Source of the DNA: Alphaproteobacteria bacterium | Lineage (GTDB): Bacteria > Pseudomonadota > Alphaproteobacteria > JBFXJJ01 | Assembly: GCA_050175015.1 (NCBI GenBank) | Contig: JBFXJJ010000012.1 | Coordinates: 1-64,000, forward strand | Length of the DNA: 64,000 nucleotides | Reading direction: 5' to 3' | Shown: piece after piece, positions 34,149 through 48,682 of the stretch | Layout: the number at the start of each line of letters is the position of its first letter | How positions within the stretch are numbered: the stretch's first letter is position 1 | Translations under genes and position numbers: made by a program | The notes under the pieces: model-generated | Told to the model about the DNA's origin: nothing | The model's input: the letters and a program-made list of their open reading frames with translations, nothing else | The model's database searches: none

Positions 34149-36092
34149 CTAGTTCATATTTTTTATTTCATTAGCAGTAAGTTCAATACTGCTAACAACT
34201 TCTCCAGATTGAGCCGAACTTTGGTTAAAAGCTTCTTCCAAAGAATTAAAACGCTGTTCAATCGAATGAATATTAAGTTGCAGTTGTTCATAAATTACCG
34301 AAACATCATCTAATTTATGGTTGATTGCTTGTTCACTTTCTTTGGTAGTTTCAATAACTTTCTTTGACTCTCCCGCAAGTTTTCTAACTTCTTCAGCAAC
34401 AACAGCAAACCCTTTACCAGCATCGCCAGCTCTTGCTGCTTCAATAGTAGCATTAAGAGCAAGCAAGTTGGTTTGAGCTGCAATATCCACAATTTCTTCA
34501 GAAACTCTAGAAAATTCATTAAGATTGATTTTAACACCATCAATAACATTGTTAAGATTTCCTGATACGGATAAAATTTCTTCTAAATTTTGCCGTAAAC
34601 CATCAAAATGTTCGGCATTGCTGCCCGTAATTTGACTTAAATATTTTGCCTGACCCAAAATATTATCAACATTGTTATTGATTGTTATAAATTTGTTTTT
34701 TCTCTCTTCATTAAAAGCTTCAATTTTTTCAATATTCTTAACCAGCTCATCATTTTTGGCTAAGATAATATTTTGTTCATATTCCAGCTCTTTTTTATTA
34801 TAAAACATACAGTTTTCTTTGTGATTTTGACCTTTAAAAACAGCGGTTGCAAATCTTTTACAGCTGCCATAACCGCAGGCTCCACAATTAATTTCACGGG
34901 ACTCTTTGGTATCTTTATGTAAACTATTAAAAACTTGATCAAATTCTGTAGAATTAGGATTAGATATTTTAATTTCACTAGAATGGTCAGAATAACGTCT
35001 TAAAAAATCTTCCAATTTTAAGTTCTCTTCACACCATTTTTCCATAGTATAAATAGATTCCTTAAAACGCTTTTTTTCGGTTTTATCAATAATCACCTGC
35101 TGTTTCATAACATTAGTACGATAATCAATATCGTCAATTTCAATATCGCGACCCGTGCCTGTACCAAGATTACAGCCTTGCGCACAATTTAAAATATCGA
35201 CTAAAAGCGGTGTTTTTTTACCTTCTTTAATTCTATCAGCATAGTTATCTAAATAGTGATAGGCGTGTTCAAAACCTTCAACCTGTTTTACCCAAGCGCC
35301 CGTAACATAATGCTCAACATTTTCCCTAAGACCACCAGGGCGGCTATAAGTTAAGCCTAGACCACAGGTTGGAATATTATCAAAGTCTTTTTCCTCATAT
35401 GAGGTTAAGTTGATTTTGTTTTTTTCTAAATATTCGTGAATTTTAGCATAAGTAACGTTATATTGCAGAATATTCTTCGTATTAGGATCATTGACTTCAT
35501 CGTATTTAGCAATGCAAGGAGAAAGAATAGCAATCGGTTCCGAAATATCCATATATTTGCGCATATAAACTGCGGTACAGCTTATAGGACTATGAACTGG
35601 GGATAACTGAGAAAGAATCTCTGGTTTATATTTTTGAATATAATTAACAATCGCAGGGCATGGCTGAGCAATGACCGTTTTCAGTCCTTTAGTTGCAATA
35701 GCCTTAAGATAGGCCCAAGTAGTAATGTCAGCGCCAAAGGAAACGTCATAAATTACATTAACGCCGATCGACTTTAAATAGCCAAATAATTTCTTATAGT
35801 TGCTAAAATTGTGATAAACAGAAGGCGCTGCAACGCAGGAAATGCGTCTGCCCTTCTTTAGATCATCAAAAAATTCCTCGGTATCGTCAATATAATAGCG
35901 AGCTTCGTGATCGCAGACTGCAATACAAGCTCCACATTTAATACATTTAGTATCATCAACTTTAATGATACTCTTGCCGTTTTCAATGGCGCTGTAGTTG
36001 GCTTCAAGCGTCGGACAGGCAGCAATGCACTTGTTGCAGCCTACGCACTTTTCAGCGTCAACATTAATAATTTTTTTTAAAGGTTTAAGCAT
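34149..36092 (-). CDS. Soluble sensory [FeFe]-hydrogenase-like protein fused to a methyl-accepting chemotaxis domain (group C type)
   Basis: Two CxxCxxCxxxC ferredoxin motifs; H-domain L1 AQPCP, L2 [10 protein letters not shown]3 [12 protein letters not shown]; CGACGYGSC FeS motif; MCP tip [34 protein letters not shown]; no TM. Confidence 0.9.
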
Positions 36093-36143
36093 AAGAACAC
36101 CTCCTAATGTGATAAATATTAGAAAGCCACCGAGCGAACTCGG

Positions 36144-36231
36144 TGGTCAGGGTGTTCGAAACCTTATAGAAAGATTAAGGCATAGCTGTCTTTAGCCAAA
36201 GCCTGAACATACACAACTATCACCCCGACCA
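36144..36231 (-). ncRNA. Putative C4/CI-like tRNA-shaped antisense RNA (~88 nt) within the hydrogenase-MCP leader
   Basis: Closing stem UGGUCGGGGUG/CACCCUGACCA; inner arm AUAGUUGU/ACAGCUAU; CCUUA/UAAGG arm with CUUUCUA in the loop; single-stranded UUUCGAA; both exposed segments complement upstream leader sites. Confidence 0.55.
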
Positions 36232-36365
36232 GAAAAGAAAAAGCCGAGGTTTAACACGTTATCTTTCGGTCTGTGCTTGACCGCTTTCTAAAAGGGGTTT
36301 CGAAGCCCCAGTTTGCAAAATCTGCAAACCTTTTTGACACTAAAAGATAATTGTGAAAAACACAA
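36232..36365 (-). promoter_or_regulatory. Putative promoter, antisense target sites and attenuator-like hairpin of the leader
   Basis: TTGTGT-17bp-TAGTGT on the minus strand; hairpins TTTGCA/TGCAAA and GGGG-CTTCGAAA-CCCC; CCGA..TCGG stem followed by TTTTTCTTTTCT. Confidence 0.45.
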
Positions 36366-36491: not shown

Positions 36492-36788
36492 TTATTTACA
36501 ACAGATATTTTTTAAGGTTTTTATTATGTCTCTGATGTTATCGCCTTTGAGGCGGTATATTACATTGAGACCATTTTTTTCATACTCAACAAGATCAAGG
36601 TTTTTTAGAACGGCTAAATGCTGCGACATTGGAGATAAAGACAATCCAGAGGCTTCTGCCATCTCAGATACTGTCATTTCCTTACTGCAAAGCATACACA
36701 AAATCATAAGCCTTTTTTCGTTATCAAGTGCTTTAATTAAACCCAATGCTTTTTCAAGGCTTTCCTTTTTAAATGGTAAATCTTCCAT
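36492..36788 (-). CDS. ArsR/SmtB regulator of BigR/SqrR (persulfide-sensing) type
   Basis: KRLMILCML, SQHLAVLK, C-terminal NICCK; start at ATG 36788 has an AGAGGT RBS. Confidence 0.85.
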   Translation of the reverse strand: MEDLPFKKESLEKALGLIKALDNEKRLMILCMLCSKEMTVSEMAEASGLSLSPMSQHLAVLKNLDLVEYEKNGLNVIYRLKGDNIRDIIKTLKNICCK

Positions 36789-36805
36789 ATTATTTTTTTT
36801 ACCTC

Positions 36806-36853
36806 TTGACATCTTGTTTAGAGTAAACTAAATTAGAATTATCTAAATTAGTT
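36806..36853 (+). promoter_or_regulatory. Sigma70 promoter of the YeeE operon with overlapping ArsR-type operator
   Basis: TTGACA (36806-36811), 17 bp, TAAATT (36829-36834); inverted repeat AACTAAATTAGA-N4-TCTAAATTAGTT (36826-36853, one mismatch). Confidence 0.65.
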
Positions 36854-36886: not shown

Positions 36887-37537
36887 ATGAGAAAGCAAAA
36901 AATGACATCAAGAGAGCTTAGGCAATGGTTTTTTACCCCTTTGTTTATATTGGTTATAGCTCTTGGCTGGAAATACCCATATTTGGGATATATGGCTCCA
37001 GTTACTATGGCAGCAGGGTTTGCTGTAAGCTTTTTTAAAGGAAGATACATTTGTGGCAATTACTGCCCTAGAGGGGCTTTTTTTGATAGACTTATGTCTA
37101 GGTTGACTTTAAGCCGCCCGATTCCTAAATTCTTAAAAAAGAAATCTTTTCGTTATGGCGTTGTTGTTTTTATGTTGTCTTTAATGACATATAAAATTGC
37201 GATTAATCCTTTTGATGCCAAATATATCGGACTGGTTTTTTGGCAGATGTGTTTTGCGACATCTTTACTTGGGGTTACATTAGCCGTGTTGTATAAGCCT
37301 AGAACGTGGTGTTCTTTTTGTCCTATGGGAACAATCGAAGCTGCTATTGGCGGCAACAAACAGCCGATAGTTTCACAAAAAGGGGTTTGCAAATCTTGCG
37401 GCTTATGTGAAAAAAGATGTCCTATGGAATTGGAGATAGTTAATAAAGTAGAAGATGGAACTATCGCCAATCCTGATTGTATTAAATGTGGTGAATGTAT
37501 CGGCTCTTGTCCGATAAAAACGTTAAGGAGGAAATAA
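36887..37537 (+). CDS. Membrane 4Fe-4S protein (NapH/YccM/RdxA-like)
   Basis: GRYICGNYCPRG, RTWCSFCPMG, CKSCGLCEKRCP, CIKCGECIGSCP; several TM helices. Confidence 0.88.
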   Translation: MRKQKMTSRELRQWFFTPLFILVIALGWKYPYLGYMAPVTMAAGFAVSFFKGRYICGNYCPRGAFFDRLMSRLTLSRPIPKFLKKKSFRYGVVVFMLSLMTYKIAINPFDAKYIGLVFWQMCFATSLLGVTLAVLYKPRTWCSFCPMGTIEAAIGGNKQPIVSQKGVCKSCGLCEKRCPMELEIVNKVEDGTIANPDCIKCGECIGSCPIKTLRRK

Positions 37538-37538
37538 A

Positions 37539-38069
37539 ATGAGTAAAGATTGTCAGTTGTCTTTTCGCAATAAAGCCTGGTCGCCCTATGTCGTCGGGGT
37601 TTTAATCGGACTGCTTCAAATTCCAGCTTTTATGCTAATTCATACGGCGCTTGGAGCATCATCTTCATTTGTTACCGCTGCGGCAGATATTTTAAGAGTG
37701 TTTGATCCTGCGGTTGGTGAAATAAAATATGCTGCCAAGCACTTTGATGGCGGAAAAAACTTTTGGCAGTTGACTATGGTTATAAGCATTGCCTTAGGCG
37801 CATTTATTTCGGCTTATTTTTCTAAATCACTGAAAAAGGAAAATTCGCCAGTATGGAATAAAGCTCTTAAAAACTATAGCAAAGGCAAAAGATTTTTGAT
37901 GGCATTTATTGGCGGTTTTGTTGTGCTTATGGGGTCAAGAATTGCCGATGGCTGTACGAGTGGACACGGAGTTTCAGGCATAGCTCAACTAGCAATAGGT
38001 TCTACCGTTGCAATCGTTTTTATGTTTGTTGGCGGTTTTATAACAGCCAAATTCTTTAATAAAATATAA
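37539..38069 (+). CDS. YeeE/YedE sulfur-compound transporter subunit
   Basis: WSPYVVG, LGASSSF, GSRIADGCTSGHG. Confidence 0.9.
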   Translation: MSKDCQLSFRNKAWSPYVVGVLIGLLQIPAFMLIHTALGASSSFVTAAADILRVFDPAVGEIKYAAKHFDGGKNFWQLTMVISIALGAFISAYFSKSLKKENSPVWNKALKNYSKGKRFLMAFIGGFVVLMGSRIADGCTSGHGVSGIAQLAIGSTVAIVFMFVGGFITAKFFNKI

Positions 38070-38653
38070 TGGAGGCAGAAATGACAGTATTTTCATCAAT
38101 CGTTGTTGGAATTCTAATGGGGATAGCCTTCGGATTCTTAATCGAAAAAGGGCGTATTTTTGAACCTGGATATATTGTTGGTCAGATGCAGCTGCGTAAG
38201 TTTATTATGCTCAAAGTTTTTTTAACCGCTGTAGCAACAGGTTTAATCGTAATTTCGATAATGTATAGTTTTGGTCTTGTTAAACTCCACCCTAAGGCTT
38301 TAATGTGGGGAGCCGATGTTATTGGCGGCTTATTGCTTGGGATAGGTGTTACGATTGCGGGAGCTTGCCCAGGAACTATTTTAGCTCAAGTCGGCGTTGG
38401 TTATAAAGATGCGTGGTTCAGCCTTTTGGGTGGTTTAACAGGAGCTGCGGTATATATTTATTTAGAGCCAAGTCTGACCCAAACAATATTTTACAAATCA
38501 TTGGGTAAAATCACGCTGGCAGATTTAACGGGAATACCTTTTGCCGCATTAGCTCTGCCGATAGCTGGCGTTATATTTTTAGGACTTTACTTTTTAGAAA
38601 AGAAAATTCCTTGGCAGAGTGAAATTGGAGATAATGCTGACGGCGTATCATAA
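38069..38653 (+). CDS. YeeE/YedE sulfur-compound transporter subunit
   Basis: [22 protein letters not shown]; coupled to the previous gene by TAATG. Confidence 0.9.
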
Positions 38654-48001: not shown

Positions 48002-48682
48002 CTATTCCGTGGTCTTGTCAATTACGATTTTTATGATTTCCTCAACTGTTTTTTCTGCTCCAACCGCTACTTCATAAATTCCTTGAGCTAGCATATAGCA
48101 AGGGCAGGTTATGATTTTGTTTTTATAATCAATACATATTTCTGTGGCTGAGCATTCTTTATGTTTAGCGCCAGTTTTTTCGATTTCTATAGCTGTTGCT
48201 TCATCATTTCCGATTGTTACGGTAATATGCTTGTGGCCAAGAACTCTAGCAATTAATGCTGGTGCAATACAAAGAGCCCCAATAGGTTTTTGGGCATCAA
48301 AAGTTGTTTCGATAACTTTTTGAACCTCATCGTTAACATTAGAATCAGCACCTTTTACCGCAAAGTTGCAAAGATTTAGGGCTGCCCCAAAGCCGCCAGG
48401 AAAAATTATACCATCGAAATCTTTAACAGAATATTCGGTTAAAGGTTTTATATCGCCTCTAGCAATTCTTGCCGACTCGGATAGAACATTTCTTGAAACA
48501 GGTTCTATTTTTTTTGAATAATGATTTTTGACAAAATGCTGTTCAATGTCAGGAGCAAAACACTGATATTCCGCTTTAAGCTTATTAATAGCTAGAAGAG
48601 CCAGTGTTGCTTCGTGAATCTCACTGCCGTCAAATACTCCGCAGCCTGATAAAACTACGGCAAGTTTAACTTTTTTCTCCAT
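48002..48682 (-). CDS. elbB: ElbB/ES1-family DJ-1 glyoxalase
   Basis: LSGCGVFDGSEIHE, ESARIARG, PGGFGAA, CIAP, TIGND. Confidence 0.93.
   Translation of the reverse strand: MEKKVKLAVVLSGCGVFDGSEIHEATLALLAINKLKAEYQCFAPDIEQHFVKNHYSKKIEPVSRNVLSESARIARGDIKPLTEYSVKDFDGIIFPGGFGAALNLCNFAVKGADSNVNDEVQKVIETTFDAQKPIGALCIAPALIARVLGHKHITVTIGNDEATAIEIEKTGAKHKECSATEICIDYKNKIITCPCYMLAQGIYEVAVGAEKTVEEIIKIVIDKTTE

Follow-up and report, generated by a model that had tools for sequence, protein, structure and literature searches.

A structured leader before a chemoreceptor gene

On the minus strand of the window (the whole 64,000-nucleotide stretch of DNA that was analysed), a hydrogenase-like chemoreceptor gene with its ATG at 36092 is preceded by a 5′ leader, delimited at 36334-36118 by covariance models R1 and R2, which were built solely from the leader family described here (Table 1). 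A first-pass annotation had read this region as a phage C4/CI-type antisense cassette co-opted to control a hydrogenase-chemoreceptor fusion, and the domains of the encoded protein (Fe_hyd_lg_C, 4Fe-4S and MCPsignal) agree with its naming of the gene. The sites, complements, stem, hairpin, Shine-Dalgarno sequence and ATG that it listed are all found on the minus strand at the positions it gave. It had also seen no phage genes nearby, and a check of 12 ORFs between 29.1 and 43.3 kb likewise gave no match to any phage family; the genes around the leader are housekeeping and signalling genes. Two assembled contigs of 217-218 nt cover 35975-36217 and are uninformative on the RNA ends.

Two details of that annotation call for adjustment. 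The putative promoter at 36365-36337 is too weak for a promoter consensus scan, which missed it, but a similar arrangement (CTTGyNT, a spacer of 17-19 nt and an AT-rich hexamer ending 2-8 nt before the model start) was recognised by eye at five of the six copies of the leader in this genome. The hairpin plus U-tract is present, but it consists of the P2 hairpin and the U-rich loop of the region 1:region 2 hairpin, and the terminator scan did not flag it. What the scan did flag is the hairpin with stem CCACCGAG/CUCGGUGG at 36146-36127 and tail CTTTCTAATA; this stem ends 34 nt before the ATG, and the 3′ end of the model at 36118 lies 25 nt before it.

Table 1. Features of the leader and its downstream gene (a, b: upstream pairing sites; a′, b′: their complements)
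Feature	Position	Strand	Evidence or remark
Putative promoter: TTGTGT (36365-36360), 17-nt spacer, TAGTGT (36342-36337)	36337..36365	-	by eye
Whole leader RNA	36118..36334	-	R1 141.2 bits, E 2.1e-40; R2 122.6 bits over 36118-36331
P0, 5′ hairpin GGUUUGCA..UGCAAACU	36310..36330	-	minimum-free-energy folds, inverted repeat; family double changes at 8/8 pairs
GGGGCUUCGAAACCCC, local hairpin P1 (site a in loop) or 5′ strand of helix a	36294..36309	-	
Site a, TTCGAAACC	36296..36304	-	exact complement of a′
Site b, UAGAAAG	36284..36290	-	5′ strand of hypervariable helix b
P2 hairpin, CGGUC..GACCG	36267..36283	-	folds; double changes at 6/6 pairs
Region 1, CCUCGGCU	36242..36249	-	pairs with region 2 in minimum-free-energy folds; proposed anti-antiterminator
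Region 2, GGUCGGGGUG	36221..36230	-	alternative partners region 1 or region 3
P4 hairpin, conserved internal-loop sequences GUAUGUNCA and CUAAAG	36182..36220	-	family alignment
b′, CUUUCUA	36167..36173	-	exact complement of b
a′, GGUUUCGAA	36155..36163	-	exact complement of a
Region 3, CACCCUGACC	36145..36154	-	3′ strand of closing stem with region 2; last bases also terminator base
Intrinsic-terminator-like hairpin CCACCGAG-UUCG-CUCGGUGG, tail CUUUCUAAUAUUUAU	36112..36146	-	terminator scan
Shine-Dalgarno sequence AGGAGGUG	36098..36105	-	read off sequence
Downstream ORF, 647 aa	34149..36092	-	4Fe-4S, Fe_hyd_lg_C, MCPsignal domains

The 273-nt region folds far more stably than its composition would give, at -94.7 kcal/mol compared with -65.8 +/- 4.7 kcal/mol for 200 shuffles, none of which was as good (z -6.13). 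The complementarity of a and b to a′ and b′ reported in the annotation is exact, and a repeat search extends the a pair to 14 nt (86% complementarity) and the b pair to 12 nt (92%). However, the pairing is first of all intramolecular: both the minimum-free-energy fold and covariation join a and b to the a′ and b′ of the same molecule. The closing stem UGGUCGGGGUG/CACCCUGACCA (36231-36221 with 36154-36144) is present, with ten of its pairs displayed by folding. With the terminator, the nested fold reaches -80.9 kcal/mol; enforcing the region 2:3 stem gives -74.1 kcal/mol, to which the a/b duplex adds up to -14.5 kcal/mol. Given that the nested fold combines a:a′ and b:b′ with the terminator, structure is silent on which state is ON.

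Covariation and alternative helices in the family

Members of the RNA family are about 190-250 nt long. An alignment of 51 sequences has 92.3% of its cells paired, with double changes at 65 of the 69 pairs. Its covariation score of 0.685 compares with 0.218 for shuffles (0 of 500 reached 0.685) and at most 0.109 for slid partners, and compensatory changes occur in every helix.

Helix a covaries heavily (columns 53-55 with 386-388), with at most one unpaired cell per 51, and the competing local hairpin P1 is 92.6% paired in the family. Two-sided changes are found at 8/8 pairs of helix b, with 94% of its cells paired. The two helices of the P4 hairpin are 95.9% and 88% paired, with double changes at 13/14 pairs, and the terminator hairpin (family helix 10) shows double changes at 9/9 pairs. 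Strong conservation is seen in the unpaired UAUGG, GUAUGUNCA, CUAAAG and AAC.

Both alternative partners of region 2 are supported by covariation. The helices between regions 1 and 2 have 93% of cells paired and double changes at 9/9 pairs; for the helix between regions 2 and 3 the figures are 91% and 6/9. A single column of region 2 (260) covaries both with column 166 in region 1 and with column 393 in region 3; the counts for columns 260-393 are AU 22, UA 16, GU 5 and UG 2, with 1 unpaired. The overlap of region 3 with the terminator covers four alignment columns (398-405) in the family and only 2 bases in the window copy. A hairpin followed by a U-rich tail was seen by eye in about four of the six copies in this genome, one of the six lacks the U-rich tail and is separated from its ORF by 110 nt, and 33 of 130 members have a different 3′ hairpin in place of the terminator hairpin.

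Several further readings of the leader were tried and rejected. A third pairing site, b (36291-36283) with the terminator tail (36127-36119), is perfect in the window, but the cognate combination was the better one in only 61 of 111 members (p 0.19). A leader peptide starting at a conserved AUG in the P4 hairpin was rejected because insert lengths, judged by eye, are not multiples of three. The reading of GGGGCUUCGAAACCCC as a tRNA T-arm was rejected because the bases of its loop are variable and change together with a′. An NCCA 3′ of the closing stem, also sought by eye, is not universal: it is common in low-GC members but not in the GC-rich variant.

The a/b sites differ from copy to copy

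Within genomes, the cognate a+b duplex is the strongest in each row of the comparison, with three exceptions: in genome G000 these are the pair L083/L084, which have a common b, and in G002 the 5′ strand of L065 pairs 1 kcal/mol better with the 3′ strand of L029 than with its own. Each copy within a genome has a/b sequences of its own, and those of the paralogues in the genome of the window are mutually non-complementary. In a set of five near-identical paralogues, 30% of a/b positions differ, as opposed to 8% elsewhere; this excess divergence is found in one paralogue group only and in none of three others.

Distribution and downstream genes

The first-pass annotation had pictured a single co-option event, which does not agree with what we found. 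Covariance-model search gives six copies in the same genome, and these belong to a very large cellular and plasmid-borne family. Among 151 sampled genomes of the class, R1 finds 59 places in 24 genomes and R2 finds matches in 33. With a Rhizobium copy as BLAST query the family was found on 388 plasmids, and on an Agrobacterium Ti-type plasmid one copy immediately precedes traM. Members also occur in Acidobacteriaceae, at low sequence identity, and on 20 viral contigs. Blastn gave no match for the window copy against phages and plasmids, nor for locus L048 against plasmids. Broader search patterns were set aside, since by estimate their chance matches would run from hundreds to thousands. Some loci carry tandem copies (three matches at L102, two at L170).

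The position of the leader relative to the next gene is strongly constrained. A same-strand ORF preceded by a Shine-Dalgarno sequence starts within 40 nt in 40 of 51 members, compared with 3 of 51 in the opposite-strand control, and the same test on a second set of members gave 49/74 and 5/77, respectively. For most ORFs the gap of 10-35 nt is too short for a separate promoter. The genes themselves are highly diverse: 44 downstream proteins carry 48 Pfam families, including MCPs, outer-membrane proteins, restriction-modification enzymes, HTH regulators and traM.

No Rfam family was found at gathering thresholds at 19 sites (the window and 18 named loci), the one match in the window being a tRNA. 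E-value scans of four members returned chance-level matches only, namely c4-a1b1 on the wrong strand, Plastid-rpl16, sRNA-Xcc1 at 17.1 bits, and lncRNA fragments and RtT on the wrong strand. A limited literature search found no description of an RNA leader before traM, and members may stand under other names in the supplements of small-RNA catalogues. If our reading is correct, Rfam 15 lacks a structured RNA class that occurs in about one fifth of the genomes sampled and on hundreds of well-studied plasmids.

Relation to phage immunity RNAs

The immI cassette of phages P1 and P7 consists of the P1c4 promoter, a1, b1, the C4 RNA, a2, b2 and icd-ant. As in P1/P7 and N15 (RF01695), the leader described here presents a putative promoter, a 5′ hairpin, a/b, a hairpin and a stem-closed RNA with a′/b′, in the same order, and the 5′ hairpin loop GCAAAAUC/GCAAAUUC is common to the phage P1/N15 cassettes and some copies of the family. 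As expected of the C4 clan, the stem-closed RNA measures some 80-90 nt, and its a′/b′ segments complement two upstream sites of the same transcript. The layout proposed in the first-pass annotation matches that of the phage C4/CA cassettes, and the family models single out the N15 CA and P1 c4 loci with weak scores. R1 has a single match in the whole N15 record, over the CA RNA. With filters off, N15 scores 18.9 bits with R1 and 20.8 with R2, and P1 scores 14.8 and 20.0 bits, respectively, in searches where a two-hairpin artefact reached 17.7 bits; over all searches the N15 scores span 18.8-20.8 bits. In the P1 alignment, the model starts 4 nt past the P1c4 -10 hexamer, helices a and b fall on the annotated a1 and b1, respectively, and the UAU|GG junction coincides with the mature 5′ end of C4, to which G36230 of region 2 is aligned. 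Phage P4 is matched partially by R1, at 9.2 bits, and not at all by R2 at E<=0.05; with default filters R2 matches nowhere in the whole P1, P4 and N15 records.

RF01695 (C4; gathering cut-off 45 bits) scores P1, P4 and N15 at 68.8-78.8 bits and has no match at E<=10 in the whole genome. The covariance-model scan suggested by the first-pass annotation gave it no support: C4, c4-2 and isrK have no match at E<=10 in 701 nt around the window copy, sRNA-Xcc1 likewise fails to recognise that copy, and c4-a1b1 (RF03163; cut-off 46.7 bits) has one match of 10.8 bits (E 9.3), to a near-palindromic hairpin on the opposite (+) strand. The annotation had also entertained cross-talk with prophage RNAs, an idea that finds no support in a genome with no C4 match and with paralogous a/b sequences that do not complement one another.

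The family also departs from the phage cassettes in several ways. Unlike in P1 and N15, the leader ends in its own predicted terminator and precedes cellular or plasmid genes rather than icd/ant; unlike in P1, the window leader has no a2/b2 target over the ribosome-binding site. Indeed, across 111 members no a2/b2- or seqC-like target emerged, as a′/b′ bind their own downstream 110 nt at -16.8 kcal/mol and those of others at -16.2 kcal/mol (cognate better in 66/111, p 0.064). The same comparison with upstream sequence, as a control, gave -24.4 and -15.1 kcal/mol (cognate better in 108/111). In contrast to the C4 clan, the window copy lies outside a phage or prophage, and the gene after it is a chemoreceptor fusion rather than an antirepressor, kil or replication gene. 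With the family models giving weak scores of about 20 bits, we read the leader family as a divergent cellular and plasmid-borne variant of the a1b1-C4 cassette. The interpretation given in the first-pass annotation is partly supported overall.

The immunity of satellite phage P4 supplies the working model for the output. As summarised in PMC4825925, it involves seqA, a CI RNA carrying seqB, and seqC, and acts by RNA-dependent premature termination. Like P4, the family encodes in its leader a stem-closed RNA complementary to an upstream site of the same transcript, and by analogy we have adopted termination as a working model for its output; unlike the family, with no such target found among the 111 members compared, P4 also uses the downstream seqC. 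In the same account (PMC4825925), IsrK of the Salmonella Gifsy-1 prophage, a C4-clan RNA in Rfam, is a short terminated leader that shares one promoter with a read-through mRNA and acts on that longer form. Short and long leader forms would be a point of likeness; IsrK, as described there, activates translation of a phage antiterminator operon.

Proposed mechanism and alternatives

The leader is probably a terminator-based attenuator that switches the downstream gene by early transcription stop. We favour attenuation over translational silencing as the probable output because alternative helices and a predicted terminator lie at the end of the element. Transcription would start near 36334 from the cassette-borne promoter. 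By default, region 1 would pair with region 2, the terminator would form, and most transcripts would end before the gene. In the alternative state, region 2 would pair with region 3, giving a C4-like stem-closed fold docked on a/b; the terminator would be weakened and chemoreceptor mRNA made. If P4 CI and N15 CA are a guide, the leader, once terminated or processed, may accumulate, and its a′/b′ may then bind a/b on nascent transcripts of the same locus and bias them toward termination, which would amount to self-limiting negative feedback. The locus-specific a/b sequences would prevent interference among the six paralogous cassettes. We give this proposal as a whole (a C4-relative leader, an attenuator, and a′/b′ feedback on the own locus) about an even chance, with a probability near 0.5.

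The strongest competitor, which we consider possible though clearly on the doubtful side, is a switch acting purely in cis, such as a riboswitch or an attenuator dependent on a protein or on temperature, in which a ligand, a protein or a physical signal would move region 2 between regions 1 and 3, helices a and b would be architectural, and nothing would act in trans. The intramolecular a/b pairing of the minimum-free-energy fold fits such a switch, as do the lack of a downstream a2/b2 target and the three of four paralogue groups with no excess a/b divergence, and the strong conservation of the unpaired motifs suggests a binding surface. However, the extreme diversity of the downstream genes speaks against a metabolite ligand, each copy within a genome has its own a/b sequences, and the family resembles cassettes with a known trans-acting RNA.

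The cassette could instead be a stand-alone gene for a small RNA acting in trans on distant mRNAs, as proposed for Brt1, with the downstream gene expressed by incidental read-through. PMC5387305 describes Brt1-9 of Bartonella henselae as multi-copy RNAs of 194-203 nt, located 10-18 nt upstream of small XRE-HTH trp genes and highly abundant while those genes are poorly transcribed; a second report (PMC8070961) finds trp1 up after deletion of the Brt 3′ stem-loop. Some members of our family likewise precede XRE-HTH genes (L048; R. etli CFN42 p42d, with a copy at record positions 193097-193284). The Brt authors call these RNAs genus-specific, and the family models found no match in four small genomes of the Rhizobium family. 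The similar size and arrangement of the Brt RNAs, together with the promoter-like sequence and terminator-like end of the cassette, lend this reading some weight. Nevertheless, we judge it unlikely: the leader is tightly constrained in its orientation and distance relative to the next ORF, the short gap before most ORFs leaves no room for a separate promoter, and the variable a′/b′ segments are matched by sites on the same transcript. A dispersed MITE-like repeat with no function at the RNA level, an identity that the first-pass annotation had named as a possible refutation and that multiple and tandem copies (L102, L170) might recall, is highly improbable in view of compensatory changes in every helix, fixed orientation relative to ORFs, and conservation across families of the class and Acidobacteriaceae at low sequence identity.

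More tentatively, and with confidence well short of even, we suggest that Alphaproteobacteria, their conjugative plasmids and some Acidobacteriaceae may hold a large set of addressed RNA autoregulators derived from C4/CI cassettes, each stopping its own nascent transcript and capping whichever gene follows. If true, this would constitute a general, orthogonal and protein-free dosage-control module outside phages. TraM is the anti-activator of TraR, and a traM leader on Ti-type plasmids would contribute to setting the quorum threshold of conjugation. The phage immunity-RNA principle would then reach cellular regulation, including chemotaxis receptors, outer-membrane proteins, restriction-modification enzymes, XRE regulators and traM. 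The Rhizobium and Agrobacterium plasmids offer tractable genetic systems for RNA-dependent termination and orthogonal addresses.

A last observation concerns sRNA-Xcc1 (RF02221). Among four members scanned, only the Granulicella locus L120 matches its model; the match covers the stem-closed part, where the closing stems are alike, and at 17.1 bits is near chance (cut-off 53 bits; E 2.6 in 401 nt); the window copy, L144 and L246 give no match. This small RNA is borne on integrons and islands, and in Xylella it forms tandems with C4 and isrK. It occurs in multiple copies and tandem arrays (PMC12189769), a trait that it shares with the leader family.

A family of leader RNAs

The minus-strand elements listed by the first-pass annotation are all found where it placed them, in a 400-nt gap between two ORFs (see table). 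A repeat search of the window recovers a and a' as an inverted repeat extended to 14 nt (86%) and b and b' as one extended to 12 nt (92%), and the predicted fold of the window copy pairs a/b to a'/b' intramolecularly. This region folds at -94.7 kcal/mol, compared with -65.8 +/- 4.7 in shuffles (z -6.1). The window copy alone has a further perfect 9-nt complementarity, between the b region UUAGAAAGC (36283-36291) and the terminator tail GCUUUCUAA (36119-36127); this third site is not a feature of the family as a whole. On the strand opposite the ArsR-type ORF, 36887-38653 encodes a membrane 4Fe-4S protein and two Sulf_transp half-proteins, possibly an ArsR-controlled sulphur-transport unit.

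The element is a member of a family and not a single event. A BLAST search within the genome revealed a second copy (65% identity) upstream of a Cache-HAMP-MCP gene, and one distant genome of the same class holds several more. Seven copies align well; RNAalifold predicts 69 pairs for them and sees compensatory changes in 18. A covariance model built from these seven (R1) matches 59 places, spread over 24 of the 151 genomes sampled from the class. Six of these places are in the window's own genome, where the annotation had proposed a search for other copies and their downstream genes. A second model (R2), built from 55 diverse members, is positive in 33 of the 151 genomes, a tally that counts the window's genome and an unpublished one (G040), and single genomes have as many as 13 copies. 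A strict conserved-core pattern occurs in at least 120 stretches of a species-representative collection, and R1 confirms 79 of 80 among the matches listed. Rfam families all stay below their gathering scores at the family sites checked.

The great majority of named carriers are Alphaproteobacteria (Rickettsiales, Rhizobium, Shinella, Devosia, Hyphomicrobium, Methylobacterium, Xanthobacter, Caulobacter, Celeribacter, Ruegeria, Sphingomonadaceae), and several are Acidobacteriaceae, including Granulicella rosea. By this distribution, the window's organism is probably an alphaproteobacterium. The Acidobacteriaceae members are full-length (L104, L114, L118, L120, L126, L132, L133, L169, L172), with Granulicella rosea and Terracidiphilus among the records, and as they fall outside Proteobacteria they suggest horizontal spread. 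By BLAST, a Rhizobium plasmid copy matches 388 plasmid records (Agrobacterium 218, Rhizobium 78), 280 of them typed as conjugative, and the family also occurs on twenty IMG/VR viral contigs. Tandem arrays were seen at L102:1533-2245 (three R1 matches about 285 nt apart) and L170:6389-6896 (two), recalling the sRNA-Xcc1, C4 and isrK arrays that PMC12189769 describes in Xylella.

The family element is a leader. An SD-preceded same-strand ORF starts within 40 nt of 40/51 members against 3/51 in a mirror control, and of 49/74 against 5/77 in a second set. The downstream genes are very diverse: 48 Pfam families were matched across 44 proteins, products include outer-membrane barrels, an autotransporter, restriction-modification enzymes, methyltransferases and Cache-MCPs, and numerous small ORFs match no family. 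A similar weak promoter-like sequence, judged by eye, precedes five of the six window-genome copies. The sCache_2 ORF in the table is a sensor part alone, with no MCP signalling domain, and may be a truncated or split chemoreceptor. In another genome (G002), nine copies (L009, L028-L031, L064-L067) precede a family of small ORFs of 55-95 aa sharing the C-terminal motif ..P[IV][DE]AT.KML.AG..AE.IYASMLLA..; the two scanned have no Pfam match, and the ORF at L067 has an early in-frame stop.

Features of the window locus, copies in the window's genome and plasmid members
Feature	Coordinates	Downstream gene or position	R1 or other score
ArsR-type ORF	36492-36812	one flank of the gap	
647-aa ORF (4Fe-4S, Fe-only-hydrogenase-like and MCP signalling domains)	34149-36092	other flank of the gap	
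Window-genome copy		hydrogenase-like MCP	
Window-genome copy		Cache-HAMP-MCP	
Window-genome copy	G000:C19:20398-20613	144-aa sCache_2 ORF, L084:2145-2576	
Window-genome copy		DUF1232 protein	
Window-genome copy		TM2 protein	
Window-genome copy		type ISP restriction enzyme	
pMP90 member	L247:4001-4183 = NZ_CP067040.1 97702-97884	traM	R1 39.7 bits, E 1.8e-11
R. etli CFN42 p42d member	L246:4000-4187 = record 193097-193284	directly before helix-turn-helix regulator RHE_RS30285	83.5 bits

Probable attenuation and possible feedback

Among 51 clean members, standard pairs fill 92.3% of pair cells and 65 of 69 pairs show changes on both sides; the alignment had been fitted to the structure in the model, which biases these counts in its favour. 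Covariation scores 0.685, compared with 0.218 when shuffled (0/500 reach 0.685) and at most 0.109 with slid partners, a control that carries the same fitting bias, so that the contrast with it is meaningful. In helix a, each of the three central pairs takes four or nearly four pair types with at most one unpaired cell, while helix b is hypervariable yet always complementary. The 5' GGGG...CCCC may fold locally into a hairpin whose loop contains site a, or may form the outer end of the long helix; the data fit both.

Region 2 (GGUCGGGGUG) can pair either with region 1, upstream of it, or with region 3, downstream; column 260, its variable position, covaries with each of them. Four alignment columns belong both to region 3 and to the foot of the 3' hairpin, a hairpin that is terminator-like in the window copy and covaries across the family. 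The modelled anatomy is that of a terminator-based attenuator: pairing of regions 1 and 2 would free region 3 and complete the terminator, whereas pairing of regions 2 and 3 would give a stem-closed, C4-like fold and remove the terminator's foot. For the window copy, the nested fold with terminator is predicted at -80.9 kcal/mol and that with the 2:3 stem enforced at -74.1 kcal/mol, before up to -14.5 more from an a/b duplex, which would be a pseudoknot; both states are therefore plausible. In 33 of 130 members, GC-rich ones (e.g. L120:4028-4075, L104, L129, L144), a short CCC..GGG hairpin and then a longer one with the near-invariant apex GCGG-GGGCGYA-CCGC replace the plain terminator; no Rfam family matches this 3' hairpin in the three loci scanned.

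The main rival to any action in trans is a purely cis-acting switch sensing some factor. Within a genome, the a+b combination is private to each copy, and cognate duplexes are the strongest in every row of 6x6 and 10x10 matrices, except for one pair sharing b and differing in a, and for G002 L065, whose 5' strand does marginally better with another copy's 3' strand. Five near-identical paralogues differ by 30% in a/b against 8% elsewhere, although the copies are not independent, and three other paralogue groups have no such excess. Because of the private combinations and the excess in the five paralogues, we favour some trans activity of the leader RNA. In P4 and N15, according to PMC4825925, the leader RNA binds a/b on transcripts still being made and favours their termination. 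In our working model, by analogy, the present leader RNA, terminated or processed, would bind a/b on nascent transcripts and promote termination, giving negative feedback.

Relation to phage immunity cassettes

The closest known systems are the a1b1-C4 cassettes of P1/P7/N15, P4 CI and IsrK. The C4-type identity proposed for the element was not borne out by the Rfam models, which succeed on P1, P4 and N15 but recognise nothing in the window copy or the whole genome. Conversely, R1 has a single match in the 46-kb N15 record, and this coincides exactly with the CA RNA and some 105 nt upstream of it. When 9.3 kb were searched with the filters disabled, N15 scored 18.9 (R1) and 20.8 (R2) bits and P1 14.8 (R1) and 20.0 (R2), low values with a rough calibration; a two-hairpin artefact scored 17.7 bits in the same search. 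The P1 alignments start 4-5 nt past the -10 hexamer of promoter P1c4, and they place helix a on annotated a1 (48255-48261), helix b on b1 (48269-48275), a' and b' on the segments known to be complementary, and the UAU|GG junction on the C4 mature 5' end (48343); the C4 3' closing strand is misaligned. In P4, the family models give no convincing match. From these comparisons we put a true evolutionary relationship to the C4/CI/CA cassettes at about three in four. Unlike P1, which has a2/b2 over the ribosome-binding site, family members were found to have no second target pair there. Between C4 and icd, the terminator hairpin of R1 and R2 aligns to a P1 hairpin, CCUGC..GCAGG then UUGUU (L253:1573-1609 = P1 48409-48445), whose loop region contains the a2 site.

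Weinberg et al. 2010 (PMC2864571) list c4 RNAs in Proteobacteria and phages and c4-a1b1 in gamma-Proteobacteria and phages, whereas the present family is alphaproteobacterial, acidobacterial and plasmid-borne. It also ends in a terminator and precedes cellular genes. Because these features and the missing a2/b2 set it apart, the family is probably a divergent form of the C4-cassette kind, of which individual members may already stand in small-RNA catalogue supplements. The Bartonella Brt RNAs, which PMC5387305 and PMC8070961 describe as attenuators restricted to that genus, some 200 nt long and located before XRE genes, look functionally similar.

Members upstream of traM and regulators

The product of traM is the TraR anti-activator in Ti-plasmid quorum sensing. 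The Agrobacterium fabrum Ti-type plasmid pMP90 carries the element between traH and traM, 54 nt upstream of the traM start; the literature searched gave no description of an RNA leader there. Besides the p42d member, XRE-type regulators also follow other members (L097, L048).
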